From contig CAVZYA010000001.1 of NCBI GenBank assembly GCA_963779415.1, positions 96,001 through 160,000 of the forward strand: DNA of 64,000 bases, read 5' to 3'. Each line of letters starts with the position of its first letter. Position 1 is the stretch's first letter. The notes under the pieces are model-generated. The model did no database searches and was not told where the DNA came from. It saw only the letters and a list, made by a program, of their open reading frames with translations. The translations under genes and the position numbers were made by a program. The stretch is from an uncultured Acidobacteriota bacterium (GTDB lineage: Bacteria; Acidobacteriota; Thermoanaerobaculia; UBA5066). This document shows, piece after piece, positions 8,599 to 55,626 of the stretch.

Positions 8599-9774
8599 GT
8601 GAAGCTTCGTCCGACCCGGGCCGTGATCGACCTCGACGCGCTCGCCGCGAACTACCGGGCGCTCGCCGGCGCCGTTCCACCGGGGGTTGCGGTGATGCCC
8701 GTCGTGAAGGCGGACGGTTACGGGCACGGGGCCGTCCCGGTGTCACGCCAGCTCGTCGCAGCAGGCGCCGGAATCCTGGCTGTCGCCGTCGTGGAGGAAG
8801 GGGCTGAACTGCGCCGCGGCGGAATCGAGGTCCCCATCCTCGTGATGGGCTGGATCGGACCCGAGCAGCTCGAAGCGCTGGTGGAGAACGGCCTGACGCC
8901 GAACGCCCACTCGCCGGAGCAGCTCCGGGAACTGGTGGAGTTTGTTGAGAAGAAACGAACGAAGCTCCGGTTGCACCTGAAGCTCGACACGGGAATGACG
9001 AGGTTGGGGATCCTGCCGGACCAGATGTCGCATGTCCTCGACGCCGTCGCGAGGGCGAAAGAGCACCTTTTCTTAGAAGGGGTATTCCAGAATTTCGCCT
9101 CGGCCGACGAATCCGGCTCGGCACAGACAGACGCTCAGGCACTTGCCTTCGAAGAGATGCTCGCGGCGATCCGGGCGGCGGGGCATACGCCATCGATGAT
9201 CCATACCGACAACAGCGCCGGTGCTCTCTCTCGTCTCTCTTCACCTTCTAAGAAATCTCTCGTCGGGGTCTCCCACGTTCGCCCCGGCCTTGCTCTCTAT
9301 GCTCCGTTGCCCGGTCTCCCCCTTGCGGATTCTCTTCGGGACGTCATGACGTTTGTCTCCGCCGTCGATCAGGTCAAGCGCGTGGCGGCGGGGACCCGGA
9401 TCGGGTACGGCGGAACGTTCGTCTGCGGACGGGAGACGACCGTGGCCCTCGTCCCGGCCGGCTACGCGGACGGCGTTCCCCGGTCCCTCTCGGGGCGGGG
9501 CCAGGTTCTGATCCAAGGCCGGCGCTGTCCGATCGCGGGGCGCATCTCGATGGACATGACGGCGGTCGACGTGACGGACCTTCCCGCCGCGCCGCGGCGC
9601 GGGGACGAGGCGGTCTTCTTCGGCCGGTCGTTCGGGACGCGCCTCGGCGTGGAGGAAGCGGCGGCCGCCGCGGGAACGGTGGCATGGGAGGTCCTCTGCG
9701 GCGTGGGGCCGCGGGTGCCGCGTATCATCGTCGCCGGCGGCCGCATCCTCGAGATGCAGTCGAAGTTTCTCTGA
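8599..9774 (+). CDS. alr: Alanine racemase
   Basis: VVKADGYGHG (PLP Lys), KLDTGMTRLG, IGYG, GYADG, GRISMD. Confidence 0.93.
   Translation: MKLRPTRAVIDLDALAANYRALAGAVPPGVAVMPVVKADGYGHGAVPVSRQLVAAGAGILAVAVVEEGAELRRGGIEVPILVMGWIGPEQLEALVENGLTPNAHSPEQLRELVEFVEKKRTKLRLHLKLDTGMTRLGILPDQMSHVLDAVARAKEHLFLEGVFQNFASADESGSAQTDAQALAFEEMLAAIRAAGHTPSMIHTDNSAGALSRLSSPSKKSLVGVSHVRPGLALYAPLPGLPLADSLRDVMTFVSAVDQVKRVAAGTRIGYGGTFVCGRETTVALVPAGYADGVPRSLSGRGQVLIQGRRCPIAGRISMDMTAVDVTDLPAAPRRGDEAVFFGRSFGTRLGVEEAAAAAGTVAWEVLCGVGPRVPRIIVAGGRILEMQSKFL
9070..9254. repeat. Convergent pair of TTCTTAGAAGG motifs inside alr
   Basis: TTCTTAGAAGG at 9070-9080 (+) and CCTTCTAAGAA at 9244-9254. Confidence 0.8.
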
Positions 9775-10542
9775 ATGTTCGTCTTCGAGTGGCTTGGCCG
9801 CGGGCTCCTCGGCGTCCTCCACGCCGTCGGCCGCTTTTTCGTCCTCCTCGGCCAGACCCTTCACGGCGCCGTCCGCCCGCCGTTCGCTCCCGGCGCCGCC
9901 GCGCGTCAGGTCGTCCGGGTCGGCGTCGACTCGGTCCCGGTCGTCCTCCTCACGGCCCTCTTCACCGGCGGCGTCCTCGCCCTCCAGACCTTCAAAGGAT
10001 TCTCGCGGTTCCATGCCGAGGCCTACATCGGCTCGGTCGTGGCCCTCTCGATGCTTCGCGAGCTGGGGCCCGTCCTGACGGCCCTGATGGTGACCGGCCG
10101 CGCCGGGAGCGCCATGGCGGCCGAGCTCGGCTCGATGCGGGTGACGGAGCAGATCGACGCGCTCGTCACTCTCGCCACCGACCCCGTCCAGTACCTCTTC
10201 GTCCCGCGCGTCATCGCGGGGATCCTCGTTCTCCCGATGCTGACGGTTCTCGCGGACGCGATCGGGATGGCGGGGGGATACCTCGTCGCCGTGACGTACC
10301 TCGGGGCGAACCCCGTGACGTACGTCGAGAACAGCTTCCAGTTCCTGAACCTCGACGACTTGACCTCCGGCCTGATCAAGGCGGCCGTCTTCGGTGGCCT
10401 TCTCGCGCTGATCGGCTGCCAGACCGGCTTCGACACGAAGGGCGGGGCGGAAGGCGTGGGGCGTTCCACGACACGCGCTGTCGTGGCGGGCTCGCTCGCC
10501 GTCCTGATCGCCGACTTTTTCCTGACGAAGATCCTCTTCTGA
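9775..10542 (+). CDS. mlaE: MlaE family ABC permease
   Basis: RELGPVLTALMVTGRAGSAMAAELGSMRVTEQIDAL; GGAEGVGRSTT. Confidence 0.93.
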   Translation: MFVFEWLGRGLLGVLHAVGRFFVLLGQTLHGAVRPPFAPGAAARQVVRVGVDSVPVVLLTALFTGGVLALQTFKGFSRFHAEAYIGSVVALSMLRELGPVLTALMVTGRAGSAMAAELGSMRVTEQIDALVTLATDPVQYLFVPRVIAGILVLPMLTVLADAIGMAGGYLVAVTYLGANPVTYVENSFQFLNLDDLTSGLIKAAVFGGLLALIGCQTGFDTKGGAEGVGRSTTRAVVAGSLAVLIADFFLTKILF

Positions 10543-11369
10543 TGAGCGCCTCCCGTCCCATCCTCGACCTCACCGGCGTGACGAAGAGCTTCGACGGCAA
10601 GCGCGTTCTCGACCGGCTGGATCTCTCCGTCGCGGCGGGGGAGTCGCTCGTGATCGTCGGCAAGTCCGGGACCGGAAAGAGCGTTCTCCTCAAGCACGTG
10701 ATCGGCCTCCTCGAGCCGGACGCCGGGAGGGTGGAGATCGACGGCGAGGACCTCTGGAAAGTCGGGCGCGTCCGCCGGGACGAGATCCGACGGAAGTTCG
10801 GGATGTCGTTCCAGGAAGGGGCTCTCTTCGACTCGATGTCGGTCGGGGAGAACATCGCCTTCCCCCTCGTCCGGCATACGAAGATGACGCGCGAGAAGAT
10901 CCGCGCGCGCGTGGCGGAATGCCTCGAGCTGGTCCGGCTCCCCGGCCTCGAGGCGAAACGGCCGTCGGAGCTCTCGGGCGGGATGCGCCGCCGCGTCGGC
11001 TTCGCCCGCGCCATCGCGCTCTCCCCGTCGATCCTCCTCTTCGACGAGCCGACGACGGGCCTCGACCCGATCACGACGGACGTCATCGTCGGGGTCATCT
11101 CGGCGCTCGCCCGGCGCCTGAACCCGACGACCATCACGATCACGCACGACCTGAAGGCGGCCTTTGCGATCGCCGACCGGGTGGCGCTTCTCTCGGACGG
11201 ACGGATCCGGGTGGCCCTCCCGCCGCGGGAGTTCGAAGCGTCGGAGGATCCCTACGTCGCCGCCTTCGTCCGGGGGGACAGCCGCCTCGAGCCCGCGCCG
11301 GATCCGGATGTGACGGCCGCCTCTTCCCGTGGGGGGGCCTCCGGGCCGACAATAGGGACGTCTCCATGA
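10542..11369 (+). CDS. mlaF: MlaF family ABC ATP-binding protein
   Basis: GKSGTGKS, FQEGALFDS, LSGGMRRRV, FDEPTTGLDP; ATG overlaps the mlaE stop. Confidence 0.92.
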   Translation: MSASRPILDLTGVTKSFDGKRVLDRLDLSVAAGESLVIVGKSGTGKSVLLKHVIGLLEPDAGRVEIDGEDLWKVGRVRRDEIRRKFGMSFQEGALFDSMSVGENIAFPLVRHTKMTREKIRARVAECLELVRLPGLEAKRPSELSGGMRRRVGFARAIALSPSILLFDEPTTGLDPITTDVIVGVISALARRLNPTTITITHDLKAAFAIADRVALLSDGRIRVALPPREFEASEDPYVAAFVRGDSRLEPAPDPDVTAASSRGGASGPTIGTSP

Positions 11370-12808
11370 GCACGACGGCCAAGATCGGCGCCTTCTTCCT
11401 CGTCGTCCTGATCGCGGCGGGAATCCTCATCCTCCGGATCGAGGACATCGCCATCGGAAAGAAGGCGAGAACCCACGCCGTCGAGGTCCACTTCGCCGAC
11501 GTGGCGGGGCTCGACGACAAGTCTGCGGCCCGGATCGCGGGCGTCCGCGTCGGGAAGGTGGACGGCATCCGTCTTCTCCCGGACGGCTCGGCCGTCGTCC
11601 GGATCGCCCTCGAGGGGGACGTCGAGCTTCGTCAGGGGGCGACCGGGCAAATCCGGGCGATGGGCCTCCTCGGCGACAAGTACGTCGACCTCTTCCCCGG
11701 GCCACCGTCCGGAGCGAAGCTCGCCGACGGGACGCGGATAGAGGGAAACGTTCCTACCAGCCTCGACGAGCTGACGTCGCTCGCGGGGGACATCGGGAAG
11801 GACGTCAAGGAGCTGACGTCGGCCCTTCGCGGCTCGCTCGGCGGGCGCGAAGGAGAGGAGAAGCTGAACCGGATCGTCGACAACATCGGGCGCCTCGCCG
11901 AGTCGCTCGCCCAGATGGTCGAGGCGAACCGGCTCAACGTCGACGCGACGCTCAGGAACATCCGTGAGTTCACCTCCGGGCTGAACGCCACTCTCGCGCG
12001 GCTCGACCGGATCCTCGACGAGAACCGGGGAAGCCTGAAGGGGACGATGGCGAACACGGACGAGCTTTCGGCGAAGCTGAAGACGACGGCGGACAACCTG
12101 AACTCCATCACCCAGAAGATCGACGAGGGGAAGGGGACCATCGGCAAGCTCGTCAACGATCCGGAGACGGCCCAGAACCTCAACGACACGCTGAAGTCCG
12201 TGAAGTCCGGCGTCGACCAGCTGAACACGACGCTGACGCAGGTGAACAAGCTGGAGCTGCAGTTCGGCTTCCGCGGGGAATACGGGACGCGCAACGGGGC
12301 CGGGAGCGGTTTCTTCACCCTCGACATCATGCCGCACGAGAACCGCTTCTACCGGTTCGAGCTGGTCACGCCCGCGAACGGGCGGCGGTACGACGAGGCG
12401 CAGACGGTCACGATCCTGAACCCCGACGGAACGCAGACGACGACCCAGTACGTCACCACGAGTTACAAGGACCAGCTGGCCATCTCGGCGCAGATGGGGT
12501 GGCGGCATCGACGACACGATCCTCCGCGCCGGCCTCATCGAGTCGCGAGGCGGCGTCGGCATCGACCAGATGCTCTGGGGGGACCAGGTCCGGCTGACGG
12601 GCGAGGTCTGGGATTTCAACAGGTCCACCTTCCGCCCGCAACATGAAGATGTACGGGCGTTGGGTGCCCGGGAAGAACTTCTTCGTCACGGCGGGCGTGG
12701 GCGACCTTCTGAATCCGTCGGAGCGGTCGCTCCTCGCTCGGTGCGGGCTTCAGCTGGACGGACGAGCGGGTCAAGACGCTCCTGGGAACCGCGACGGTCT
12801 TCCGGTAA
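11366..12808 (+). CDS. mlaD: MlaD/MCE family protein with helical region (apparent frameshifts near 12500, 12640 and 12740)
   Basis: TM anchor, VAGL...RIAGVRVGKV, GLLGDKYV, GKGTIGKLV; C-terminus reconstructed to WTDERVKTLLGTATVFR* (TAA 12806-12808). Confidence 0.82.
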
Positions 12809-12809
12809 T

Positions 12810-12871
12810 CGGGGGGTGCGTCGTCCGTCTCCGCCGGTGGGACGCCGGGTTCGCACCCCCCGGCCCCCCCT
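12810..12871. repeat. G-tract hairpin, REP-like element, copy 1
   Basis: CGGGGGGTGCG (12810-12820) pairs with CGCACCCCCCG (12852-12862), followed by GCCCCCCCT. Confidence 0.6.
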
Positions 12872-12899
12872 GACCCTCGCGATCAGGTAGCCTCGCCTC

Positions 12900-14264: not shown

Positions 14265-14270
14265 CCTCCT

Positions 14271-14471
14271 TCAGGCCGGCCGCGGGCCGCCGAGGATCCG
14301 CGCGGGGAGGAAGATCAGCGCCTTCACGACGGCGAGAACGCCTCCGACCGCGATCCCGACGAGGTGGAACGGGAGCAAGAGCAGCCAGACGAACGGGTAG
14401 AGGACCAGCCCCAGGAGCGCCAGCGGCCAGCAGAGGACGAGGAGGATGAGCCAGAGAAAGAACTTCGCCAT
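14271..14471 (-). CDS. Small hydrophobic membrane protein (66 aa)
   Basis: Almost entirely hydrophobic; GGAGG RBS upstream; fills the gap between radA and rubrerythrin. Confidence 0.65.
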   Translation of the reverse strand: MAKFFLWLILLVLCWPLALLGLVLYPFVWLLLLPFHLVGIAVGGVLAVVKALIFLPARILGGPRPA

Positions 14472-14601
14472 CGCGGGCCTCCGGGAGGTGTTACGGGCGG
14501 CTCCGGCAGAGGTTTCGTTTTCGCTGATCCCATTGCATCATGGCCCCGGGCGAAGGGGCATGGGAAGGTCCGCGGGGAACGCTCCGGGAGGAGACGCGAA
14601 G

Positions 14602-15120
14602 ATGAAGACTCTCGACCTGACGAAGATCGACCTGAGAGACGCCCTCGACCTCGCCAGCCTGATCGAAGACGAGGCGAAAGAGCGGTACGAGGAGCTGGCC
14701 CATCAGATGGAGCTGCACCACGATGCCGACGTCGCCCGGTTCTTTCACTTCATGGCCAAGAACGAAGCCCGTCACGGCGAGGAGCTGGCCGAGCGGCGAG
14801 CGCGACTCTTCCCGAGCCTGCCGCGCCGGGTCGACCGCTCGATGATCTGGGATGTCGAGGCACCCGCCTACGAGACCGTCCGGGCCTTCATGTCGCTGAA
14901 GGAGGCCCTCGAGGTGGCGCTCGCGGCCGAGGTCAAGGCCTTCAACTACTTCTGCGAGGTCCTGAAGTCCATGCCCGAGGGGGAAGTCAAGAAGCTCTTC
15001 GAGGAGTTGAAGGAAGAAGAGGTCCACCACCAGAACCTCGTCAAGCTCGAGATGGCAAAGCTCGGGCCCGAGGAGAAGTTCACGACCGAGGACTTCGCCG
15101 ACGAGCCGGTCGGGCACTGA
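14602..15120 (+). CDS. Rubrerythrin/ferritin-like diiron protein
   Basis: Two E...ExxH helix pairs (IEDEA/NEARH and AEVKA/EEVHH); GGAGGAG RBS before ATG 14602. Confidence 0.85.
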   Translation: MKTLDLTKIDLRDALDLASLIEDEAKERYEELAHQMELHHDADVARFFHFMAKNEARHGEELAERRARLFPSLPRRVDRSMIWDVEAPAYETVRAFMSLKEALEVALAAEVKAFNYFCEVLKSMPEGEVKKLFEELKEEEVHHQNLVKLEMAKLGPEEKFTTEDFADEPVGH

Positions 15121-15132
15121 AGCCCCGGGCGT

Positions 15133-16033: not shown

Positions 16034-16039
16034 GCGCGG

Positions 16040-16061
16040 AGTCTAGCCCGCGCGCTAGACT
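16040..16061. promoter_or_regulatory. Back-to-back TAGACT -10 boxes for divergent purC and pepA
   Basis: Perfect inverted repeat AGTCTAGC-N6-GCTAGACT; the minus-strand box lies 6 nt from the purC ATG. Confidence 0.6.
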
Positions 16062-17636: not shown

Positions 17637-17641
17637 CCGGG

Positions 17642-19391
17642 TTGCTCGCGTCCCTCCGCGTCCGCGACCTCGCCGTCCTCGAGGACGTGGAGGTCTCGTT
17701 CGGGGAGGGGCTGACCGTCCTGACCGGCGAGACGGGAGCGGGAAAGTCGCTCGTCGTCGACGCCCTTTCGCTTCTCTCGGGCGACCGGGGCGACGCCACG
17801 CTCGTCCGCGCCGGAGCGGAGAAGCTCGTCGTGGAGGGGGCCTTCGACTCCGACGACGACGCCGTCCGCGAGGCGCTTTTCGAGGCCGGCCTTCTCGACG
17901 GGGAGCGCGGCGCGGCCGACGGCGTCGTCATCCGGCGCGAGGTGGCCTCCGGCGGAAAGGGGCGTCTCTTCGTGAACGGCTCGCCGGCGGTCCTGAAGAC
18001 GCTCGCGGAGATCGCCCCGCGCCTCCTCGTCCTCTACGGGCAGGCGGAGGCGCGCGAGCTTCTCGACCCGTCGGCGCCGCGGGAGCTGCTCGACCGGTAC
18101 GCGGGACTTTCGGAAGAGGTGGCGCGGACGGCGGGGTACTACCGGACGTGGCGCTCCCGGGAAACGGATTGCTCGCGCCTCCGCGCGGCGGAGAGCGACC
18201 GGGCGCGCAAGCTCGACCTTCTCGAATTCCAGATCCGGGAGATCGACGCGGTAAGGCCCGAGGAAGGAGAAGACCAGGAGCTTTCTTCTGAGAAAGGAAA
18301 GCTCGCGAACGTAGAGAAGAGTCGGGACCCTGCTCGCACAGGCCGTGGAGGCGTTGGAGTCCGAGGAGAACGGCGCCATTCGCGCGGCTTCGTCGGCGCG
18401 GCGCGCTTTTCTCCTTCTCGAAGAAATCGACTCGTCGTACGGTGCGCGAGCCGCGAGGGTCTCCGAAGCGATCGAGACGCTCAGCCAGGCGGCTCTCGAG
18501 GCCTCTCGCGACCTCGAAAGGCTGCAGGCTGACCCTTCCCGCCTCGCTTTCGTGTCGGAGCGTCTGGACGCGCTCGCGCGCCTGAAGCGGAAGTACGGCG
18601 CGACGCTTTCGGACGTCCTCCGCTTCCGGGAGGAGATCGGGAAGGAGCGGGCCGAGCTTTCGGATCTGGAAGGGGCGGTCGTCAAGGCCGAAAAGGCCGC
18701 GCGCGAGGCGTTCGACATCTACCGGAAGGCGGCCCTGGAGCTTTCCGCCGCGAGGGCGGCCGCGGCCCCGCGCCTCGCGAAGGCGGTCCGGTCCCATCTC
18801 TCCGACCTCGCGTTTCCGAAAGCGGCCTTCGACGTCTCCGTGTCGCGAAAGCCGGACGCGGAGAGCCCTTTTTCGGCCGGGGGCGAGCGCGTCGCCTGTG
18901 CGGCACACGGCATCGACGCCGTCTCCTTCTCGTTCGCCCCGAACCCGGGCGAGCCGGCGCGGCCGCTCCCGAAGATCGCTTCGGGAGGGGAGCTGGCGCG
19001 CGTCCAGCTCGCCCTCGCGGCGTCGCTCGCGGAGGAGGAGATCCGGCTCGGGGGCGGGCGTCCGCGGCGCGGCGGCCCGGTCCGGACGTTCGTCTTCGAC
19101 GAGGTGGACGCCGGGGTCTCGGGCGCGACGGCCGAGGCCGTGGGCCGGAAGCTCCGGTCCCTCTCCCGCCGCGAGCAGGTCCTCGTCGTGACGCACCTGC
19201 CGCAGGTCGCGGCGGCGGGGGAGCGGCATCTCCTCGTGACGAAGGAGACGTCGGCGGGCCGGACTCGAACCCGGGTCGCCGAGCTGGATGAGAAGGGGCG
19301 GATCGAGGCGATCGCCGGGATGCTCGCGGGAACCTCGGTCGGTCCGGCCGCCCGCGCCCAGGCAAAGCAGCTCCTCGGCGGCCGGAGCTGA
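17642..19391 (+). CDS. recN: DNA repair protein RecN (frameshift near 18320)
   Basis: TTG start, LTGETGAGKS, IASGGELARV, FDEVDAG, VTHLPQVAA. Confidence 0.92.
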
Positions 19392-29024: not shown

Positions 29025-30776
29025 ATGTCCGCACTCGCGCGCACCCCCGCCGGCGCCCTTCGGAAGGACCATGCGGGGCAGACCGTCCGTCTCGAGGGCT
29101 GGGTCAATCGCCGCCGCGACCACGGCGAGCTGGTCTTCGTGGACCTTCGCGACCGGTCGGGCCTCGTCCAGGTCGTCTTCGACGCGCGGTTCCTTCCGTC
29201 GAAGGAGATTCTCGAGACCGCCAAGGAGATCCGGAGCGAGTTCGTCCTCGACGTCGAGGGGACCGTCGTCCCGCGCGAAGGCGGCGCCGTGAACCCGGAG
29301 CTTCCGACGGGCGAAGTCGAGGTCCGCGCGACGGCCCTTTCGATCCTGAACCGCTCGGAGACGCCGCCGTTCCCGATCGAGGACGACGTGAAGGCCTCCG
29401 AGGACCTGCGGCTCAAGCACCGCTATCTCGACCTCCGTCGTCCCGTCATGACGCGGAACTTCGTCATGCGGAGCGACGTGACGTTCCGGATCCGGAAGAT
29501 CCTGCACGAGGAGGGCTTTCTCGAGATCGAGACCCCGATCCTGACGAAGTCGACGCCGGAAGGAGCGCGCGACTTCCTCGTCCCGGCCCGGGTCCACCCG
29601 GGCGAGTTCTACGCGCTGCCGCAGTCGCCGCAGCTCTTCAAGCAGCTCCTGATGGTCTCGGGGATGGAGCGGTATTACCAGATCGCGCGCTGCTTCCGGG
29701 ACGAGGACCTCCGGGCGGACCGGCAGCCGGAGTTCACGCAGGTCGACCTCGAGCTCTCCTTCCCGACCGAGGAGACGATCTTCGCGCTCGTCGAGCGCCT
29801 CTTCGCCGACGTCTTTCCGATGTGCGGCATTCCGTGTCCGACCCCCTTTCCACGGATGACGTACGACGAGGCGATGGAGCGGTTCGGGATCGACCGGCCG
29901 GATACACGGTTCGGCCTCGAGCTCGGCGACGTCGCGGGGCTCGAAGAGAAGATCCCTTCGAAAGTGGAGAAGGTGAAGGGCCTCTGCGTCCCCGGTGGAG
30001 GCTCTTTCTCGCGCAAGCGCCTCGACGATTTCGAGAAGGGGGCGAAGGCGGCGGGCGCGGAGTGGTTCTTCTGGGTGAAGACGTCCTCCCCCTGGAATTC
30101 CAATTCGAAGAAATTCTTCGACGACGGCTCCGTCGAGCGCCTCCGCGAGTCGGTCGGCGCGAAGGAGGGCGACCTCGTCCTCGTCGCCGCCGGAAAGGCC
30201 AAGAACGTTTTCGACTGCCTCGCCTCTCTCCGCGTCCAGATCGCCCGCGAGGAAAAGCGGATCCCCGAGGGGCGTCACGATTTCCTCTGGGTGACCGACT
30301 TCCCGCTCCTCGAGTGGCATGAGGAAGACCGGCGGTGGTACGCGATGCATCACCCCTTCACGTCGCCGCGCGAGGAGGATCTTCCCTTCCTCGACTCCGA
30401 CCCGGGACGCGTCAAGGCGCGGGCGTACGACGTCGTCCTGAACGGGATGGAGCTCGGAGGCGGCTCGATCCGCATCCACCGGCCGGACGTCCAGTCGCAG
30501 GTTTTCGCGCGGCTCGGGATCGGGCCCGACGAGGCTCGCGCGAAGTTCGGATTTCTCCTCGACGCGTTCCGTTTCGGCGCGCCCCCGCATGGCGGTATCG
30601 CGCTCGGGCTCGACCGGATGCTGATGGTCCTCTCGGGGAGCACGTCGATCCGCGACGTCATCGCGTTCCCGAAGACGGCGTCGGGCACCTGCCTCATGAC
30701 CGGCTCGCCGGGGCCGGTCGATCCCGCTCAGCTCTCGGAGCTGGGGATCGCGCTGGCGAAGCCGGTCAAGAGTTGA
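29025..30776 (+). CDS. aspS: Aspartate--tRNA ligase (likely non-discriminating Asp/Asn)
   Basis: RRDHG, STPEGARDF, LPQSPQLFKQ, FRDEDLRADRQPEFTQ, GGGSIRIH, PPHGG. Confidence 0.96.
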   Translation: MSALARTPAGALRKDHAGQTVRLEGWVNRRRDHGELVFVDLRDRSGLVQVVFDARFLPSKEILETAKEIRSEFVLDVEGTVVPREGGAVNPELPTGEVEVRATALSILNRSETPPFPIEDDVKASEDLRLKHRYLDLRRPVMTRNFVMRSDVTFRIRKILHEEGFLEIETPILTKSTPEGARDFLVPARVHPGEFYALPQSPQLFKQLLMVSGMERYYQIARCFRDEDLRADRQPEFTQVDLELSFPTEETIFALVERLFADVFPMCGIPCPTPFPRMTYDEAMERFGIDRPDTRFGLELGDVAGLEEKIPSKVEKVKGLCVPGGGSFSRKRLDDFEKGAKAAGAEWFFWVKTSSPWNSNSKKFFDDGSVERLRESVGAKEGDLVLVAAGKAKNVFDCLASLRVQIAREEKRIPEGRHDFLWVTDFPLLEWHEEDRRWYAMHHPFTSPREEDLPFLDSDPGRVKARAYDVVLNGMELGGGSIRIHRPDVQSQVFARLGIGPDEARAKFGFLLDAFRFGAPPHGGIALGLDRMLMVLSGSTSIRDVIAFPKTASGTCLMTGSPGPVDPAQLSELGIALAKPVKS

Positions 30777-30804
30777 GGAAGAGAAGATCGGGGATTTTCC
30801 GAAA

Positions 30805-31935
30805 ATGAGAAGAGCAGAGAGGTCGCGGTTCCGGGAGCGGCTGTCCTGCTTCTCGTTCGCGGCGGGTGGCGACCGGACGGATGTGGTCGTGGGAGCGGGC
30901 GCTTTTCGCGTTCTCGCCTCGCGGCTCCCCGACATCGCGCCGGGCCGCTGGTTCCTCGTCTCTTCGAAGAGAGTCTTCACTCTCCATGGCGAAGAGCTTC
31001 TCGCGGGAGGCGTCGAGAGGCTCGATCGCAAACCCCTCCTCGTCCCCGACGGCGAGGCGGCCAAGACGTGGGACGTCCTCGGGCGACTGCTCTCCGAGCT
31101 GGCGACGCGAGGCCTGAAACGGGACGGCGGGATCATCGCCCTCGGCGGCGGGACGGTCGGGGACGTGGCCGGCCTCGCGGCGGCGCTCGCGCTCCGCGGG
31201 GTGCCGGTCGTTCAGGTTCCGACGACGCTTCTCGCGGCTGCGGACAGCGCGCTCGGCGGCAAGACCGCGGTCGACCTTCCGGCGGGAAAGAACATGGCCG
31301 GGACGTTTCACATGCCGCGGCTCGTGGCCGTCGAGATCGGGACGCTCGAGACGCTCCCGCCACGGGCGTTCCGCTCCGGTCTCGCGGAGGTCGTCAAGAG
31401 CGCGCTCCTCTCGCGGCCGTTCTTCTCCGAGATGCCGGGGCTCGTCCCGGGGCTCGCCCGAAGGGATCCCGCCGCCGTCGTCCGCGCCGTGCGCCGATCG
31501 CTCGCGATGAAGGCGGCGGTGGTCGCGGCGGATCCGTTCGAGCGGCGGGGCCTCCGATTCGCGCTCAATCTCGGGCACACGGTGGGACACGCGCTGGAAG
31601 CCGCGTCCGGCTACCGCCTCGCCCATGGAGAAGCGATCGGATGGGGGCTTCTCGCGGCGATCCGGCTCTCCGAGGAGCGAGCCGGCCTCTCGCGGCCGGC
31701 GGCCGACGCCGCGCGCGCCTGGATCCGGACGCTCGTCCGTCCGCCGCTTCCTCCTCTCTCGGCGCTCCGCTCGTGGCGGGGTCGCCTGAAGGCCGACAAG
31801 AAAGCGGACCGGGAGGGCCTCGTTGCGGTTCTCCTCGCGGCGCCGGGGCGAACGACGCTCTGCCGGGTCGCACCGAAGGACCTCGCGGCGGCCTTCGAGG
31901 CGTCACTCCCATCGTACAATCGGCCCGGGAAGTGA
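30805..31935 (+). CDS. aroB: 3-dehydroquinate synthase
   Basis: DGEAAK, GGGTVGD, PTTLLA...DSALGGKT, NLGHTVGHALE, HGEAI. Confidence 0.92.
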   Translation: MRRAERSRFRERLSCFSFAAGGDRTDVVVGAGAFRVLASRLPDIAPGRWFLVSSKRVFTLHGEELLAGGVERLDRKPLLVPDGEAAKTWDVLGRLLSELATRGLKRDGGIIALGGGTVGDVAGLAAALALRGVPVVQVPTTLLAAADSALGGKTAVDLPAGKNMAGTFHMPRLVAVEIGTLETLPPRAFRSGLAEVVKSALLSRPFFSEMPGLVPGLARRDPAAVVRAVRRSLAMKAAVVAADPFERRGLRFALNLGHTVGHALEAASGYRLAHGEAIGWGLLAAIRLSEERAGLSRPAADAARAWIRTLVRPPLPPLSALRSWRGRLKADKKADREGLVAVLLAAPGRTTLCRVAPKDLAAAFEASLPSYNRPGK

Positions 31936-37562: not shown

Positions 37563-38716
37563 CCCCGGGCGCCTACGTCCACATCCCGTTCTGCGCCCAC
37601 CGCTGCGCCTACTGTTCGTTCGTGGCGCTCGAAGGGAGATCCGAGGAGAAGAGTCTCTTCGAAGGGGTGGAGAGGGAGATTCGCTCGAGGGGAGCCGACG
37701 CGTCGCGCGGCCTTCGGAACTTCGACTCGGTCTACTTCGGAGGGGGTACTCCATCGTACGTCGACGCGATCCGGCTCCGCGGCGTGCTCGGGACACTCGA
37801 AGAAGTCTTCGGTCTCTCTTCAGATGTCGAGATGACGGCCGAAGCCAACCCGGACGACCTGGACGGCGAGAAGCTCCGTGCGCTCCGCGCCGTGGGCATC
37901 AATCGCCTCTCCGTCGGGGTCCAGTCCCTCGTGGACGAGGAGCTGGTGCCGCTCGAGCGCCGGCACGACGCGGCGGGAGCGCGACGAGCCGTGGAGGAAG
38001 CTTGCCGGCTCTTCGGAAACGTCTCGGCCGACCTGATGATCGGCATTCCGGGGCAGACGCGGACGACCCTCCGCCAAAGCGTGGACGGGCTTCTCGCGGC
38101 GGGGATCCGCCACCTTTCGGTCTACCTCCTCGAGATCGAGAAGGCGCCGCGTCTCGTCCGGCTCCTCTCCGAGCGGCCGGAGCTCTTCGCCGACGACGAC
38201 GAGATGGCCGACCGCTGGCTGGAGGTGGACGAAACGCTTGAAGCTGCCGGCCTGCCGCGCTACGAGATCTCGAACTGGGCGCGCCCCGGCTTCGAGAGCC
38301 GGCACAATCTGAAGTACTGGACCCTCGCCCCCGTCCTCGGATTCGGCGTCGCGGCGCACAGCTTCGACGGAAGGCGCCGAAGCGCCAACACCGGAATGCT
38401 CATGGAGTACCTCCGTCGAACGCGGGCGGGCGAATCGACGACGGCGACGGTCGAAGAGAACGCCGGGGGATCGGATTTTCTCAGAAGGAAGGAGAGACTG
38501 ATGCTGGGCCTGCGGCTGGCGGAGGGCGTCCCCTCTTCCTCATTCGATGAAATCCGGTCCTCGCTGCCCGCCGCGGAGGCCTCGCGGATTGGAGATGCAT
38601 TCGACGCCGGACTCCTGGAGACCGTCGACGAGGCGGGGGAGCGTGCCGGTCGACGGGTTCGCCTCACGCGCAAGGGCGTGCTCCTCTCGAACGAGGTCTT
38701 CGCGCTTTTCCTCTAG
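37559..38716 (+). CDS. hemW: Radical SAM heme chaperone HemW
   Basis: TTG start; YVHIPFCAHRCAYCSF, GGGTPS, YEISN, HNLKYW. Confidence 0.9.
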   Translation: MTPGAYVHIPFCAHRCAYCSFVALEGRSEEKSLFEGVEREIRSRGADASRGLRNFDSVYFGGGTPSYVDAIRLRGVLGTLEEVFGLSSDVEMTAEANPDDLDGEKLRALRAVGINRLSVGVQSLVDEELVPLERRHDAAGARRAVEEACRLFGNVSADLMIGIPGQTRTTLRQSVDGLLAAGIRHLSVYLLEIEKAPRLVRLLSERPELFADDDEMADRWLEVDETLEAAGLPRYEISNWARPGFESRHNLKYWTLAPVLGFGVAAHSFDGRRRSANTGMLMEYLRRTRAGESTTATVEENAGGSDFLRRKERLMLGLRLAEGVPSSSFDEIRSSLPAAEASRIGDAFDAGLLETVDEAGERAGRRVRLTRKGVLLSNEVFALFL

Positions 38717-50190: not shown

Positions 50191-50259
50191 CCCGGCGATT
50201 GTCGGGACCTCGCCGCCGTTGGTCAATGAATGGAACGCTCTTTTCGGTAAGCTTGCCAG

Positions 50260-51366
50260 GTGAGCCGCCCGACACCGCGCACCGCGGGCCTCCCGCAGAC
50301 CGTGCCTCTTCTCGTCGTGACCCGAGGGGCGCGGATGGAATCGGTCCACCGGGGATCCGTTGCGGTCGTGGCCGCCGACGGCCGGCTTCTCGCGGCGGCG
50401 GGGGACCCGCTCCAACCCGTCTTCCTTCGCTCGGCGGCCAAGCCGTTCCAGCTCACGCCGTTTCTCGCGGCCGGGGGCGAGCGCCGCTTCCGCCTCACGA
50501 CGAAGGAGGTCGCCCTGGCGGCCGCGTCACACGGGGGCGAGCCTTTCCACGTCCGGACGGTTCGGGGGCTCCTCGAACGAGGCGGCTTCTCGGTGGACGA
50601 CCTTCACTGCGGCGCGCACGCCCCGATGAGGGAAGAGACGGCTCGCGCGCTCGCCCACCGGCACGAGAAACCGAGCGCCCTCCACAACAACTGCTCGGGG
50701 AAGCATGCGGCCATGCTCCTCTGCTGTCGCCTCCTGAAGGAGGACCCGGCGACCTACTGGCACCGCGACCACCCGCTCCAGAAACGGATCCTCGACACGG
50801 TCTCCCGGATGACGGGCGTCTTGGAGGAGCGGATCGGCCTCGGCGTCGACGGGTGCTCGGTTCCGGTCTTCCAGGTCCCGCTCTACAACCTCGCGCTCTC
50901 GTATGCGCGGCTCGTCGGACCGCGCCTTCCGGGCGAGCCGGCGGCGGAGTTCGCGGCGCGGAGGAGGATCGTCGAGGCGATGACTTCCGAACCCGAGATG
51001 GTCGCGGGAACGGGCCGTTTCACGACGCGACTGATGCGGGAGTTCGGAGGGGATCTCCTCGGCAAGGAAGGGGCGGAAGGGGTTTACGCCGTGGGCGTTC
51101 CGGCCCGGCTCGCCGCCTCGCTTCCGGTCGACGGGCCGGTCGGCATCGCGCTGAAGATCGAGGACGGCGCCGAACGCGGACGCGACGCCGTGACGGTCGA
51201 AGTGATGCGCCAGCTCGGACTCGCCTCGGGGACGCGGCTCTCGCGCCTCAGGCGCCTCGCGCGGCGCCCCGTCCGGAACGTCCGGGGAGAGGTAGTCGGC
51301 GGGATGATGCCCGTCTTCTCCCTCGATCTCTTCGCGTCCGAGGCCGCCGCCGGGAGAGCTCGTTGA
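50260..51366 (+). CDS. L-asparaginase II (Rhizobium etli-type)
   Basis: RSAAKPFQ, SHGGEPFH, NNCSGKH, DGC, KEGAEG, KIEDG. Confidence 0.92.
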   Translation: MSRPTPRTAGLPQTVPLLVVTRGARMESVHRGSVAVVAADGRLLAAAGDPLQPVFLRSAAKPFQLTPFLAAGGERRFRLTTKEVALAAASHGGEPFHVRTVRGLLERGGFSVDDLHCGAHAPMREETARALAHRHEKPSALHNNCSGKHAAMLLCCRLLKEDPATYWHRDHPLQKRILDTVSRMTGVLEERIGLGVDGCSVPVFQVPLYNLALSYARLVGPRLPGEPAAEFAARRRIVEAMTSEPEMVAGTGRFTTRLMREFGGDLLGKEGAEGVYAVGVPARLAASLPVDGPVGIALKIEDGAERGRDAVTVEVMRQLGLASGTRLSRLRRLARRPVRNVRGEVVGGMMPVFSLDLFASEAAAGRAR

Positions 51367-51827
51367 AGACCGTCCGCGTCGGCAAAATCGCGCAGGGGCT
51401 CCTCCTCGCCCTCTACACGTCGGGCGTCCTCGTCCTGACCCTTCTCGTGCAGGGGCGCCCGGGGGTCCGGACGAATCTCGCCCCGTTCGATGACCTGCAG
51501 CGACTCTCGAGTCTCGCGGCGCGGCGGGGAATCCTGTCGAACGTCTTCCTCTTCGCGGTGAGCGGGATCGCGGCGAATCTCGCAATGTTCGCGTTCTGGG
51601 CGTTTCTCGGTTGGAAGTTCCTCGACGGGAAGGGGCGGTCGGCATGGCGGAACGACGCCGACATCCTCCTCGCCGGGTCTCTCTTCTCCACGGGGATCGA
51701 GGCGGCGCAGCTCTTCCTCCCGACTCGGGCGGCCGACGTCAACGACGTCTTCTGGAATATCCTCGGGACATTCGTCGGCGTCGGCGTGGCTCATGCCGCT
51801 TCCCGGGTCCGCCTCGAGTGGGAGTAG
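51363..51827 (+). CDS. VanZ family membrane protein
   Basis: [35 protein letters not shown]. Confidence 0.85.
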
Positions 51828-51857
51828 GCTCCCGGCAACCGGGCGACGGACCCACGA

Positions 51858-51943
51858 GCCGGAGTGGCGGAACGGCAGACGCGGGGGACTCAAAATCCCC
51901 TGTCCGCAAGGACGTGCGGGTTCGAATCCCGCCTCCGGCACCA
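51858..51943 (+). tRNA. tRNA-Leu(CAA)
   Basis: GCCGGAG/CTCCGGC acceptor stem, GGGGA-CTCAAAA-TCCCC anticodon arm, long variable arm, GTTCGAATC, encoded CCA. Confidence 0.97.
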
Positions 51944-51973
51944 TCCGTGAGCAGACTTCGGGAACGTCATCTA

Positions 51974-52002
51974 TTGACGGGCTGCGGAGGCCGGAGTAGT
52001 CT
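51974..52002 (+). promoter_or_regulatory. Sigma70-type promoter of carD
   Basis: TTGACG-N17-TAGTCT; GGAGGAGG RBS downstream. Confidence 0.7.
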
Positions 52003-52033
52003 TCCGTTCCCAACCCGGGAGGAGGCCGTCACC

Positions 52034-52552
52034 GTGTCATTCAAGGTCGGCGACAGGCTCGTCTATCCGAACCACGGAGTCGGCGTGGTCGAGCGGATCC
52101 AGGAATCGCTGCTCGACGGTTCTCCGTCTCCGTGCTACCAGCTGCGCCTGATGTCCAACAATTCCCGGGTGATGGTGCCGATGAGGAACTCGGAACGGAT
52201 CGGGCTTCGCCCGCTGACGCGGCGGGCCGAGGTCGGAAGCGTTTTCCGCGCCCTCGAGAACGGCGCGCAGCCGCTCTCCGGGGACTGGAAGGGGCGGTAC
52301 AAGCAGAACCTCGACAAGATGCGCTCGGGCCGGCTGACCGAGATCGCGGACGTCCTCTCGAACCTCAGCTGGGTCCAGAAGCAGAAGGCGCTTTCGTTCC
52401 GCGAGAAGAAGATGTTCGAGCGGGCCCGCTATCTCATCGTTTCCGAGATCGCCCAGATAAACGGTCTCGCGGAGCGGGAGGTGGAGTCCGAGGTCGACAA
52501 GGCGCTCGGCCGCTCGATGGTCCGACGCCGTTCGGTCCTTCAGGATCACTGA
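52034..52552 (+). CDS. carD: CarD/CdnL family transcription factor
   Basis: FKVGDRLVYPNHGVG, VMVP, GLRPL, DWKGRYK (conserved Trp). Confidence 0.93.
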   Translation: MSFKVGDRLVYPNHGVGVVERIQESLLDGSPSPCYQLRLMSNNSRVMVPMRNSERIGLRPLTRRAEVGSVFRALENGAQPLSGDWKGRYKQNLDKMRSGRLTEIADVLSNLSWVQKQKALSFREKKMFERARYLIVSEIAQINGLAEREVESEVDKALGRSMVRRRSVLQDH

Positions 52553-52604
52553 TCGCCGCGGCCCGCGGCGACGGCGGACGGCACTCTCCCGTATAGTCAG
52601 GGGG

Positions 52605-53366
52605 ATGTCGCTGCGTACCGCGGCCGTGTCCGTCGCCCTCGCTCTCGCGATCGTGCTCCCGGCACGCTCGGCAGGCCCCCCCCGGTCCGACGGCGTCTCG
52701 GAGTTCCTGCTTCTTTCCCTCGACATGGAGCGCAAGGGGGCCCTCCAGGATCTCGAGGACCTCGACCGGATCACCGCGCGGATTTCCCGCGCCGAAGAGG
52801 ACTTCGGGGCCGCCATGCAACGGCTCGGCCGCCTCGCACGCGAGATGACGGCCGACCGGCAGTCCGTCGATAACGCGGAGGACGCCGTCGTGGAGGCTGA
52901 GGGCCGGGTCCGCGCAGAGCAGGAGCGGAGGCGGGAGCTTTCGGCCCGTATCGCCGAGCGGGTCCGGCGGATCGCCGCGCTGCGCGGCGAGATCCTCCGG
53001 CGGCGCGAGATCGGCCGGTCGCCGGACGATCCGGTCTCGGGCCGGTGGGAGGTCGTGATCAACCCCGGACCGGTCCGCGGCGTCTTCCGGCTCGTCCTCG
53101 ACGGAACGCTCGTCTGGGGCGATTACACCCTCGAGGGAGGATTCCGCGGGTCGGTTCGCGGGACGCTCGTCGCGGACCGGCTGAGTCTCGAACGGATCGA
53201 CAGCGAGCAGGGCTTCGACGCCCGGTTCTGGGGGCGGCTGAACGCCGCGCAACGACGAATCACGGGAACCTGGGAGGCGACGGCGCTCGCCCCCGCGGTC
53301 GGGCCCGTCGCCGGCTCCTGGACGGCGGCTCCGGCGAAGGAGCCCGAAGAGGGAGAGAAGCCATGA
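52605..53366 (+). CDS. Secreted hypothetical protein, coiled coil plus C-terminal beta domain
   Basis: Signal peptide, heptad-rich middle, TATAGT 7 nt before the ATG. Confidence 0.7.
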   Translation: MSLRTAAVSVALALAIVLPARSAGPPRSDGVSEFLLLSLDMERKGALQDLEDLDRITARISRAEEDFGAAMQRLGRLAREMTADRQSVDNAEDAVVEAEGRVRAEQERRRELSARIAERVRRIAALRGEILRRREIGRSPDDPVSGRWEVVINPGPVRGVFRLVLDGTLVWGDYTLEGGFRGSVRGTLVADRLSLERIDSEQGFDARFWGRLNAAQRRITGTWEATALAPAVGPVAGSWTAAPAKEPEEGEKP

Positions 53367-54079
53367 TCTCGGAGAAGGACGATCACATTCCCGCCCCCGC
53401 CGGGCCGGCGAAGAGGAAGGGAGCCGCCGCCGCCGCCGCGACTCGCTCTCTCGGGCTCGCGTGGGGGGACCGGATTCTCTTCGCGGCGCTGGGGCTTCTC
53501 CTCGGCTTTGCGGTCGCCTACATCTATCTCGAGCGCGGCGGGCGCGGGGGGCCGGTCCCGTCGTCCGCGGACCCGCACGCGGGGATCTCGGGCGTTCAGC
53601 CCGGAGCGACCCGCGATCTGCCGGGCTCCGGGGGCGGAGCCCCGGGCATCTCGATGGACCCTTCGGTTCAGAAGGGAATCGCCGATCTTCAGGCGGCCGT
53701 GGCCCGCGACCCGAAGAACGCCGACCTTCTGGTCAACCTGGGGAACGCCGCGTACGACGCGGGAGACTGGCGCCTCGCCGTCGACTCGTACGAGCGCGCC
53801 ATCACGCTCAAGGGGGACGATCCGAACGTCCTGACCGACCTCGGCGTCTCGTACCGGAATCTCGGCGATCCGGAAAAGGCGCTCGCCCGGTTCGACCGTG
53901 CGCTCAAGGCCGATCCGGGGCACTGGCAGGCTCTCTACAACAAGACCGTCGTCCTCGGGATCGACAAGGGCGAAACGAAGAAGGCGAAGGAGCTGCTCGC
54001 GAAGCTGAAGGCGAGCGGCCAGAACGGCGCCAACGTCGAACAGCTCGAGAAGTCGATCGATCAGGCGGCCGGTCGCTAG
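53363..54079 (+). CDS. Membrane-anchored TPR protein
   Basis: TM helix, DPHAG, TPRs LVNLGNAAYD and LTDLGVSYRNLG. Confidence 0.8.
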   Translation: MISEKDDHIPAPAGPAKRKGAAAAAATRSLGLAWGDRILFAALGLLLGFAVAYIYLERGGRGGPVPSSADPHAGISGVQPGATRDLPGSGGGAPGISMDPSVQKGIADLQAAVARDPKNADLLVNLGNAAYDAGDWRLAVDSYERAITLKGDDPNVLTDLGVSYRNLGDPEKALARFDRALKADPGHWQALYNKTVVLGIDKGETKKAKELLAKLKASGQNGANVEQLEKSIDQAAGR

Positions 54080-54095
54080 GGGGAGGGCCGGGCCG

Positions 54096-55481
54096 ATGTC
54101 CGGCGAGCTCTTCGACGAACCCGACCCGTCCGAAGAGGCTCAGGTACCGGCCGTGCCGCCGACGGGAGCTCCTCTCGCCGACCGGATCCGCCCCCGGGAC
54201 CTTGCCGAGGTCGTCGGTCCGCCCGAGCTCGTCGGGCCGGAGTCGTTTCTCGGGAAGGCCATCGCGGAGGACCGCGTTCCGTCGCTCGTCTTCTGGGGCC
54301 CGCCGGGATCCGGGAAGACGACGCTGGCGCGTCTCATTGCGGCCCGGACGCGTGCCCGTTTCGTCGCCTTCTCGGCCGTCGTCTCCGGCATCAAGGAGAT
54401 CAAGGCCGTCATGGAGGAGGCCGGACGCGTCCGGCGCAGCGGACGGCGGACGCTTCTCTTCGTCGACGAGATCCACCGCTTCAACCGTGCGCAGCAGGAC
54501 GCCTTCCTGCCGTTCGTCGAGACGGGAGTGATCGTCCTGGTCGGCGCGACGACGGAGAACCCTTCGTTCGAGCTGAACGGCGCGCTCCTCTCGCGCCTGC
54601 GCGTCGTCATTCTTCCTCCGATCGCGGAGGCCGACCTGATCGTCCTGATGAAGCGAGCGCTCGCGGACCCCACGAGGGGCCTTGCGGCAAGGGTCACGGT
54701 CGAAGAGGACGCCTTCGAATGGCTCGCCCGGTTCGCCGACGGCGACGCACGGCGAGCCCTCACGGCTCTCGAATCCGCGGTCGCCCAGATCCCTTTCGAA
54801 GAGAATCCCCCAGCGCTCTCGGTCTCCCTTCTCGAAGAGATGTTCCGGCGCAAGGTCCTTCTCTACGACAAGTCGGGCGAGGAGCATTTCAACCTGATCT
54901 CGGCTCTCCACAAGTCGCTCCGCGACTCGGACGTGGACGCCTCGCTCTACTGGCTCGCCCGGATTCTGGAAGCGGGCGAGGACCCGCTCTACGTCGCCCG
55001 GCGGCTCGTCCGCTTCGCGTCGGAGGACGTGGGCCTCGCCGATCCCGGAGCGCTTCGCGTCGCGCTCGACGGGAAGGACGCCGTCGACTTCATCGGCCTG
55101 CCCGAGGGGGCGCTCGCCCTCGCCCAGGTCGCCGTCACTCTCGCCCTCGCCCCGAAGTCGAATGCGCTCTACACGGCATACGGAGCGGCCGTCTCCGACG
55201 TGAGGGAGCGTCCGAACGAGCCGCCGCCGCTTTCGATCCGCAACGCCCCGACGAAGCTGATGAAGGAATCGGGCTACGGAGCCGGCTATCTCTACGCGCA
55301 CGACCTCGCGGAGAAGACCGCCGGCCTCGACTGCCTCCCCGACGCGCTTCGCGACCGGATCTACTACCGGCCGACCACCGAAGGGAAGGAAGCGAGGTTC
55401 AAGGAGCGGGCCGACGCGATCCGGAAGCTGCGGCAAGAGCTGAAGAGGAAGAGAAGGGGAGAGGGGGAACGACGAGGGTGA
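54096..55481 (+). CDS. rarA: Replication-associated recombination protein A
   Basis: PLADRIRP, WGPPGSGKTT, DEIHRFNRAQQD, GATTENPSF, ISALHKSLR, SEDVGLAD, PKSN. Confidence 0.96.
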   Translation: MSGELFDEPDPSEEAQVPAVPPTGAPLADRIRPRDLAEVVGPPELVGPESFLGKAIAEDRVPSLVFWGPPGSGKTTLARLIAARTRARFVAFSAVVSGIKEIKAVMEEAGRVRRSGRRTLLFVDEIHRFNRAQQDAFLPFVETGVIVLVGATTENPSFELNGALLSRLRVVILPPIAEADLIVLMKRALADPTRGLAARVTVEEDAFEWLARFADGDARRALTALESAVAQIPFEENPPALSVSLLEEMFRRKVLLYDKSGEEHFNLISALHKSLRDSDVDASLYWLARILEAGEDPLYVARRLVRFASEDVGLADPGALRVALDGKDAVDFIGLPEGALALAQVAVTLALAPKSNALYTAYGAAVSDVRERPNEPPPLSIRNAPTKLMKESGYGAGYLYAHDLAEKTAGLDCLPDALRDRIYYRPTTEGKEARFKERADAIRKLRQELKRKRRGEGERRG

Positions 55482-55540
55482 GGAGATCCAGGGAGAGAAA
55501 AGCCGTAGAGAAAAGGACCGGAGGAAGAACCACGAGAGAC

Positions 55541-55626
55541 TTCTTAGAAGGTGAATCGGTCACGGGCGCGGGCTAAGCTCACGATATGCGCCTCGACCTG
55601 ACCAGAGTTCTATTACCTTCTAAGAA
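55541..55626. repeat. Convergent pair of TTCTTAGAAGG motifs bracketing the TlpA gene start
   Basis: TTCTTAGAAGG at 55541-55551 (+) and CCTTCTAAGAA at 55616-55626. Confidence 0.8.

Follow-up and report, generated by a model that had tools for sequence, protein, structure and literature searches.

The DNA described here, called the window throughout, is the 64,000-nucleotide stretch C1:96001-160000 in the assembly of an uncultured Thermoanaerobaculia bacterium of the phylum Acidobacteriota (coded G000; 4.36 Mb in three contigs, 68% G+C). The subject is a short oriented sequence, which we call the arm, built around an 11-nucleotide (nt) core, TTCTTAGAAGG, and recurring in facing pairs of a sense and an antisense arm. 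One such pair lies inside the gene for alanine racemase (alr; Pfam Ala_racemase_N and Ala_racemase_C). The other flanks the ATG of a gene for a Redoxin/AhpC-TSA protein (tlpA-like, hereafter tlpA), which comes after the gene for an MgsA/RarA-type ATPase (rarA; Pfam). A first-pass annotation of the sequence had singled out these copies of the core and had suggested that they might act as an operator, in DNA uptake, or in nucleoid organisation or looping.

Copies, anatomy and pairing of the arms

A word search of the whole window recovered all four copies of the core at the positions and on the strands that the annotation had given, against an expectation of 0.02 from dinucleotide shuffles, none of which (0/100) reached four. 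Its wording of 'at least four' is right for exact copies and understates the family, as the window also contains a one-mismatch copy, TTCTCAGAAGG, and seven weaker profile matches (Table 1). Counting the word across the genome against Markov models, a check of the kind that the annotation had proposed, gave 31 occurrences where 0.24-0.42 are expected at orders 0-4 and 1.6 at order 5, or about 100 times the expectation. Among 130,746 11-mers seen at least 15 times, TTCTTAGAAGG has the highest ratio of observed to expected counts; the five words at the top, with ratios of 96-171, all overlap one another within the motif, and the next unrelated word stands at 20. A second, unrelated set of over-represented 11-mers in the same genome overlaps to CCGCTGGCAGATGG (26-31 copies, observed/expected 12-20), and TACGAGATGCT and CACCCGAACAT are over-represented as well; these words may be conserved coding words of paralogue families.

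The resemblance between copies extends beyond the core. The minus-strand copy in alr (ACGAGAGATTTCTTAGAAGGTGAA) and the copy at 55541 (ACGAGAGACTTCTTAGAAGGTGAA) match at 23 of 24 positions, and GGGAGACC stands exactly 12 nt upstream of both minus copies, two details that had been reported earlier and can be read directly in the sequence. An alignment of the 31 copies describes the arm as an oriented, purine-rich segment of ~40 nt, consisting in order of a purine-rich outer flank, often GGAGAC(C)...CCGGAGAT, the core, with the consensus TTCTT[A/C]GAA[G/A]G (A or C at the centre, G or A at position 9), and an inner flank, TGAAGAG(GG). Both this alignment and the window sequence bear out the described polarity of the pairs, with GA-rich left flanks and TC-rich right flanks. 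Further members were collected by a position-weight scan, an nhmmer profile of the 31 copies being too insensitive for a 50-nt motif, and the iterated weight matrix found 208 sites above 20 bits in the genome, compared with five in an order-3 Markov genome. The iterated profile drifted toward the C variant and picked up 13 pairs exactly 91 nt apart, whose hosts, recognised by eye, resemble Ser/Thr kinases (...AIKVLPEEFFE..., ...FEEI...). These are probably true members of the family, because the corresponding place in the kinase-like genes of other genomes (L150, L173) is occupied by the exact A-variant core, TTA codon included; as paralogues that are not independent of one another, they were set aside from the pairing statistics, which left 182 sites.

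Neighbours within 400 nt among these 182 sites were convergent (plus then minus) in 36 cases, compared with five divergent (minus then plus), five plus-plus and two minus-minus arrangements; convergent pairs number 49 once the paralogous 91-nt pairs are counted. Their spacing covers a sixfold range, from 45 to 265 nt, with the commonest class at 74-85 nt (11/36), and no helical periodicity was found among the spacings of the 36 convergent pairs. The arrangement was also followed in a scan of species representatives, in which 80 of at least 113 stretches matching a 17-mer query (GGAGAT plus the core) were analysed and a partner was defined as an antisense core with at most two mismatches. Among the matches listed, 32 of 46 Thermoanaerobaculia or Acidobacteriota loci had a partner downstream, at a distance of 63-199 nt, and none (0/46) had one upstream; 34 single matches in other, mostly AT-rich, phyla yielded one downstream and one upstream core. 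Some of the listed loci have sense arms in tandem, two to four of them, with 30-45 nt from one to the next. Head-to-head pairing, noticed at first in the window, is thus a strong bias both in G000 and in other Thermoanaerobaculia genomes.

Judged by a crude codon-usage gene model, 21 of the 36 pairs lie inside open reading frames (ORFs) that are continuous through both arms and have coding signal on either side. Hosts confirmed by Pfam include alanine racemase, RNase R (rnr), a HisA-type isomerase (hisA), aspartyl-tRNA synthetase, TANGO2, LeuRS, HypF, DapB, aspartokinase, an HflX-type GTPase and a NamZ-MobB junction. All six reading frames are occupied (15, 16, 14, 13, 7 and 13 sites, the other 104 being non-coding or at gene boundaries), so the signal is not a protein motif; the underlying frame table required stop-free frames, is circular for the choice between A and C, and serves only to establish six-frame occupancy. 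The codons that the motif forces are rare in this genome, with TTA at 0.16, CTA at 0.75, AGA at 1.9, TCT at 2.6 and CCT at 4.6 per 1000 codons in 565 long training ORFs, in agreement with the rarity that the annotation had ascribed to TTA, TCT and CCT. The signal is therefore imposed on coding DNA, as had been supposed, and it runs against codon usage.

The proposal of an operator fares less well. Most pairs sit deep inside housekeeping genes and in all six frames, which makes an ordinary operator unlikely; no regulator gene stood out beside the strongest sites, and scans for sigma-70 promoters and intrinsic terminators at both window pairs returned nothing. Polarity between origin and terminus was also among the patterns that the annotation had thought worth looking for. 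By GC skew, the origin lies near C2:450 kb, with the terminus at about C1:480 kb, and the copies in G000 show no polarity between origin and terminus (replichore pattern), their distribution being patchy, with C1 1.22-2.18 Mb empty.

Arms also fall exactly at the junctions of apparent fusion ORFs, namely NamZ_C/MobB and an Asp-Al_Ex fragment/Asp-Al_Ex-asparaginase ORF (G000 C3:158602-160350, C2:154212-156851). Frames stay open through the elements, and gene calls may be merged or split as a result.

Table 1. Arms, weaker matches and the tlpA hairpin in the window (window positions; profile scores from the weight matrix)
Feature	Position	Strand	Details
Exact copies of TTCTTAGAAGG	9070, 9244, 55541, 55616	+, -, +, -	whole-window word search
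alr sense arm	9046..9102 (core 9070-9080)	+	exact core; profile 24.2; read F-L-E-G with rare TTA
alr antisense arm	9232..9278 (core 9244-9254)	-	exact core; profile 42.0; read P-S-K-K; GGGAGACC 12 nt upstream on motif strand
Candidate weak convergent pair	18286..18425 (cores 18286 +, 18415 -)	.	profile 22.5, 20.3
Candidate weak convergent pair in aspartyl-tRNA synthetase	29954..30112 (cores 29954 +, 30102 -)	.	profile 21.4, 23.0; continuous ORF; Pfam tRNA-synt_2, GAD
Single profile match	30797..30807	+	profile 28.7
Single profile match, C variant	37655..37665	+	profile 29.7
One-mismatch copy TTCTCAGAAGG	38478..38488	+	word search; profile 24.5
Weak profile match within rarA	54793..54803	-	profile 20.7
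tlpA long imperfect hairpin	55492..55678	.	encloses ATG 55586-55588; purine-rich arm on the left, pyrimidine-rich arm on the right, ancestral start block in the loop
tlpA left (sense) core	55541..55551	+	rarA-tlpA spacer, 45 nt before ATG; profile 35.3
tlpA right (antisense) core	55616..55626	-	codons 11-14, L-P-S-K-K-I in signal-peptide n-region; profile 36.0

Origin, conservation and erosion across two genera

Exact copies of the core were counted in the genus of G000 (g1), in a second genus of the same family (g4; G010, G031, G034, G036 and G038) and in further genera and families, a first count having covered 31 genomes. The g1 genomes carry 31, 13, 12, 1, 7, 4, 14 and 1 copies and the g4 genomes 90, 147, 75, 201 and 101; the other genera and families searched have 0-1, and reversed-word controls gave 0-8. 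The C variant with its flank (GATTTCTTCGAAGG) was present in 3/5 g1 and 5/5 g4 genomes and in 0/16 genomes of eight other genera, with all controls at zero. Two of the genomes used, G024 in the 31-genome count and G019 among the alr outgroups, are flagged as unpublished; the conclusions stand without them, since the outgroup picture is the same from G008, G009, G012, G015 and G016. Among the relatives searched, then, the signal belongs to two Thermoanaerobaculia genera, which fits the annotation's view of a lineage-specific signal at the nucleotide level.

The check for conservation in relatives that had been suggested alongside this view showed that the arms in alr, hisA and rnr are kept across both genera. 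Between G000 and g4, both cores are identical at 9-11 of 11 positions in alr and hisA; in rnr the antisense core is identical at 10-11 positions and the sense core at only 7-9. Outside the cores, conserved four- and six-fold codons of these three genes agree at their third positions in a fraction of only 0.38-0.51, which amounts to saturation, and outgroup genera match the same core columns at 0-6 of 11 positions. The rare codons TTA, CTA and AGA are kept in most lineages.

The individual loci differ in how the arms came to be there. At the sense site of alr (site 1) there is no insertion relative to outgroup alr, and 9-11 of the 11 core positions are kept in relatives within the genus and in the second genus. 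The antisense site (site 2) lies within a 7-residue insertion that g1 and g4 have in common and outgroup genera are without, and its core is conserved at 9-11 positions in 7/7 ingroup relatives compared. Both sites are recognisable in 8/8 g1 and 5/5 g4 genomes. The g4 genes have four sites, one of which (IFLEG in place of AFEE) varies between close relatives, and directly beside site 2 the genes of G006 and G038 have gained a further 37 and 21 residues in frame, the G006 insertion (111 nt) carrying a new sense arm. The hisA pair has the same spacing, 74 nt, in G000 as in G010; it aligns colinearly with the outgroups and encloses ordinary hisA sequence, and at its arms VEAALA-T / FSSLLADF turned into VEDFFERK / FLTLLRRF, with one extra codon. 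In rnr, the entire unit FLEG...PSKK is a linker insertion of ~20 residues, which has been shortened or degraded to varying extent in G003, G004, G036 and G034, and fmt has a similar linker unit, estimated at 25-29 residues from a comparison by eye with the E. coli sequence. When 14 short units were aligned (13 pairs of at most 90 nt plus fmt), only the arms were conserved and the loops were unrelated and GC-rich. In G003 and G007 a single exact copy remains per genome, and the arms orthologous to those of G000 have eroded, as in rnr of G003 (TTTCTTCAGGG) and the tlpA arms of G007.

These comparisons of aligned sequences show that an arm can come into being where it stands, through substitutions or through a small in-frame insertion, and that across the divergence of the two genera its nucleotide sequence is kept by selection or a continuing sequence-specific drive. 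In species seemingly freed of this pressure the arms decay. Conserved cores at saturated synonymous divergence, origin in place and subsequent erosion together exclude a neutral relic.

The tlpA hairpin and a stem-loop reading

In G004 and G002 the rarA-tlpA region is compact, consisting of the stop, 12 nt and the ATG, and both arms are absent; in G000, G003 and G007 the ancestral block (GCTAAGCTC...ATGCGC) has an inserted left arm of ~130 nt in front of it and an inserted right arm, 43 nt long, behind it. Of the five g4 genomes searched, G010, G031, G034 and G036 could be seen by eye to have at least one tlpA arm, and none was seen in G038. Relative to G004 and G002, the left arm lengthens RarA by 7 codons (window 55479-55700), and the right arm gives the tlpA-like protein a new N-terminus at residues 3-16 (LLPSKKIP...). 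A second exported-looking protein (G000 C1:393807) begins MLPLLPSKKIP, likewise from an antisense arm; from their sequences, the arms seem to have been recruited as signal-peptide n-regions.

The tlpA element is predicted to fold with an energy of -59.9 kcal/mol (z = -2.5) into a stem of ~70 pairs with the ATG near its apex. A consensus from three species (G000, G003, G007) has 70 pairs, with 87% of cells paired compared with 49-57% in slid controls, and 18 of the pairs have compensatory changes on both sides compared with 2-5 in the slid controls; 0/500 shuffles reach the observed values. The core itself takes part, TTA having become CCG in both arms of G007. A fold alignment of eight tlpA sequences from across both genera aligned poorly and gave no consensus structure. 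No family in Rfam (Rfam 15) matches the arms at gathering score, the best match of the tlpA hairpin (E = 0.73, a plant miRNA model) being a chance one; the sole Rfam match in the window is a tRNA gene at 51858-51940.

Genome-wide, the minimum-energy fold pairs both cores in 22 of the 36 pairs, and several units reach z scores of -3.4 to -5.2. In the inner flank, read on the mRNA strand of the 33 pairs with an assigned direction of transcription, G.U combinations outnumber A.C combinations by 56 to 31 (p = 0.01), a weak hint of action at the RNA level.

We favour, with a probability of about 0.4, the reading that the pairs are a lineage-specific stem-loop signal maintained by selection, with a fixed stem and an arbitrary loop, read by a putative lineage-specific factor. 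The working unit would be one arm and, 45-265 nt further on, another that faces the opposite way. The loop would be whatever host sequence they happen to enclose, be it part of a protein or a start codon, and the stem of fixed sequence would comprise the 11-nt core and part of the inner flank. Such a stem-loop would form in RNA or in single-stranded DNA, and the factor would recognise both sequence and structure, by a logic like that of attC/integrase, REP/RAYT or CRISPR-repeat/Cas6, although we claim membership of none of these families. In the case of tlpA, the start codon would be enclosed by the stem, which could in this way gate its translation. A stem-loop, a possibility that the annotation had not considered, is favoured over a double-stranded looping site because the spacing varies widely and the tlpA hairpin covaries: a sixfold range of spacing is easily accommodated by a loop, but not by double-stranded DNA that has to bend within less than 100 bp. 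Of the functions that the annotation had proposed, the general idea of a real, lineage-specific signal survives, the operator is unlikely, and looping is disfavoured by these same two observations.

Several results weigh against the stem-loop reading. The mean fold z score over the 36 pairs is only -1.2. Partner arms are no more alike than non-partners (17.9 vs 18.0 of 55 flank positions, p = 0.58), and duplex energies are equal for partners (-44.1), non-partners (-43.5) and random neighbours (-42.8). Concordance from arm to arm appears only at the central A/C base (31/49 vs 22 expected, a count inflated by paralogues), and in-register pairing outside the core is near random, which leaves a generic stem of only ~11-19 bp with large loops. 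The excess of G.U is absent in the core (21 vs 15) and in the outer flank (91 vs 96). The two tlpA strands fold alike (-59.9 and -59.8 kcal/mol) and so do not distinguish RNA from DNA, and hairpins within translated ORFs would be melted by ribosomes. Template switching between the arms of a palindrome is a mechanism able to yield arm covariation, and the tlpA covariation, drawn from three sequences, could reflect this process instead of selection. Finally, no candidate for a reader protein was found.

Of the systems whose logic the stem-loop would resemble, attC sites likewise have conserved inverse core sites around a centre of variable length. They are recognised as a folded single strand, not by their overall sequence, and have core sites RYYYAAC...GTTRRRY in the context of cassette arrays; the cores described here, in contrast, do not fit RYYYAAC/GTTRRRY, form no cassette arrays and are located in housekeeping genes. 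The idea of a CRISPR guide was dropped, a crude array scan having given only coding tandem repeats. Long repeats of this kind lie at G000 C1:274775, C1:1788486 and C2:781230, two with units of ~90 nt and 21-24 nt and the third a GTCGGC-type low-complexity run. The 3' end of 16S rRNA (tail GGATCACCTCCTTTCTAAGGG, G000 C1:1283796) and the antisense arm CTTCACCTTCTAAGAA have two blocks in common, TCACCT and TCTAAG, which makes the sense arm partly Shine-Dalgarno-like; a convincing pairing model was not obtained.

Competing explanations and wider meaning

The arms might instead be double-stranded DNA sites for a dimeric or oligomeric protein specific to the lineage (a nucleoid-associated or bridging protein, or a domesticated transposase), with one subunit on each arm and the inverted pair clamped together. 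We consider this unlikely, while granting that a good deal fits it. Each arm agrees with the family consensus independently of its partner, without genome-wide covariation between arms; sites occur in six frames and in gene gaps, as expected if gene position is irrelevant; both strands are equivalent; g4 copies are spread along contigs at roughly one every 20 kb; and the losses in G003 and G007 fit the loss of a protein. Spacings of 45-100 nt, the commonest class, however, are hard to loop as duplex DNA, the spacings as a whole lack helical periodicity, the tlpA arms covary, and neither a candidate protein nor a pattern relative to origin and terminus was found.

A drive of the kind known from DNA uptake in Neisseriaceae and Pasteurellaceae, in which the competence machinery favours the motif and copies accumulate by substitution where proteins tolerate them, is an improbable explanation. 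The uptake sequences of Neisseria and Haemophilus (DUS/USS) are likewise oriented, over-represented short words substituted into tolerant coding positions; related genera have them in common, and they sometimes form inverted pairs, as is known for DUS. The corresponding traits are present here: an oriented word strongly over-represented in coding and non-coding DNA, in-place substitution in conserved genes (hisA, alr site 1 and the further g4 alr site), and a motif common to two genera with counts that differ between species. G000 has ComEC, and a search of 26 genomes found it in 23; motif-free genera and G003 have it too, and so it does not discriminate. Density speaks against uptake. Known uptake sequences occur about once per kb, whereas exact copies occur once per 140 kb here and once per 22-50 kb in g4 (75-201 copies in 3.6-4.4 Mb), a density 20-100 times lower than that of DUS/USS. 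An uptake word, moreover, needs no partner, and a convergent partner is nearly obligatory here; the long purine/pyrimidine arms are a further difference.

We give similarly little weight to the idea that the pairs are remains of an old burst of mobile hairpins, of the kind of MITEs (miniature transposable elements with inverted repeats) or Rickettsia palindromic elements, that inserted in frame and are now inert and decaying. The likeness is to Rickettsia palindromic elements and Correia-type in-frame MITEs, which are hairpin-forming units with inverted arms placed in coding genes at surface or linker positions. The arms here are likewise inverted, in units of ~100-300 nt; whole units stand as in-frame linker insertions in rnr and fmt; the 111-nt unit in G006 alr is an extra one; both tlpA arms are absent from G004 and G002; and some loci have tandem arrays of arms. 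Insertion of a contiguous unit, however, is confined to rnr, fmt and the extra unit of G006 alr. In hisA, at alr site 1 and in the kinase-like 91-nt pairs host sequence, often conserved, lies between the arms and the length is unchanged, and the tlpA arms are separate insertions around an ancestral block. Arms of the family are also kept by selection at synonymous sites. Loops are dissimilar between copies, so that whole-length similarity is not seen, and no target-site duplication was seen flanking the tlpA and alr insertions. Neutral relics would not keep 11/11 cores containing the rarest codon across saturated synonymous divergence. Inspection by eye, which was non-exhaustive and covered the matches in G000 and those listed for G010, turned up no long copy with a gene inside it and no transposase-like gene between convergent arms 0.5-4 kb apart.

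Among mobile repeats, the REP/BIME-REPIN class comes closest in general appearance, with short species-specific inverted doublets, variable spacers, location in transcription units, hundreds of copies and candidate hairpins. Its units are nonetheless imperfect palindromes of 20-40 nt with a GTAG or CGTC head, whereas the arms here (31 exact and 208 profile copies) are asymmetric, purine-rich and headless, with only the TTCTnAGAA portion of the consensus near-palindromic. REP/BIME-REPIN units are also extragenic, in contrast to the 21 of 36 pairs that lie in continuous ORFs, and REPINs are mobilised by RAYT, unlike the arms that arose in place. The Y1 transposase of the REP/RAYT system does not track the motif, Y1_Tnp (PF01797) having no matches in G010 (99% complete, 90 copies), three in G003 and two in G007 (one copy each).

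An inverton reading, in which a master invertase would flip the enclosed segment, also within genes, is very improbable: many loci do share an inverted repeat flanking 45-265 bp and one pair encloses a start codon, but the enclosed segments of alr, hisA and rnr are colinear in every genome compared, a flipped alr segment, read by hand, would meet a stop codon in an essential-type enzyme, and conservation of the arms extends to dozens of housekeeping genes.

No known family of repeats or signals among those tested accounts for the paired arms. The annotation had named as grounds for rejecting its view a genome-wide count near the expectation, a lack of pairing bias, or an origin of the copies in the end of a known insertion sequence or MITE or in a known regulon motif. 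None of these applies: the count is about 100 times the expectation, the bias toward pairs is strong, no such end or motif explains the copies, and no link to a transposase or RAYT appeared. The part of the literature on Acidobacteria and Thermoanaerobaculia repeats, palindromic elements and motifs, and on uptake sequences, that was available to us contained no description of the element.

Taken more broadly, it is possible, at odds that we would place a little short of even, that two Thermoanaerobaculia genera run a genome-wide nucleic-acid signalling system in which selection has placed stem-loops with a fixed stem in housekeeping genes and start regions numbering from dozens to hundreds, where they are read by a putative lineage factor, for example in RNA fate, DNA self-recognition or chromosome handling; some species would have lost the factor, after which the signal erodes. 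The near absence of the motif from the congeners G003 and G007, set against its amplification in the sister genus (75-201 copies), provides a ready contrast for phylogenetic profiling. The elements alter proteins, through linker insertions and, in the tlpA-like gene, a new signal-peptide N-terminus, and they show that synonymous sites are not free in these genomes. If a trans-acting factor does read the paired arms, they would constitute a new lineage-wide DNA or RNA signal imposed on protein-coding sequence. Signals imposed on coding sequence in this way are rare, the familiar ones being uptake sequences, Chi and KOPS, and this one would, if true, be the first described in the Acidobacteriota, a dominant but poorly studied soil phylum.

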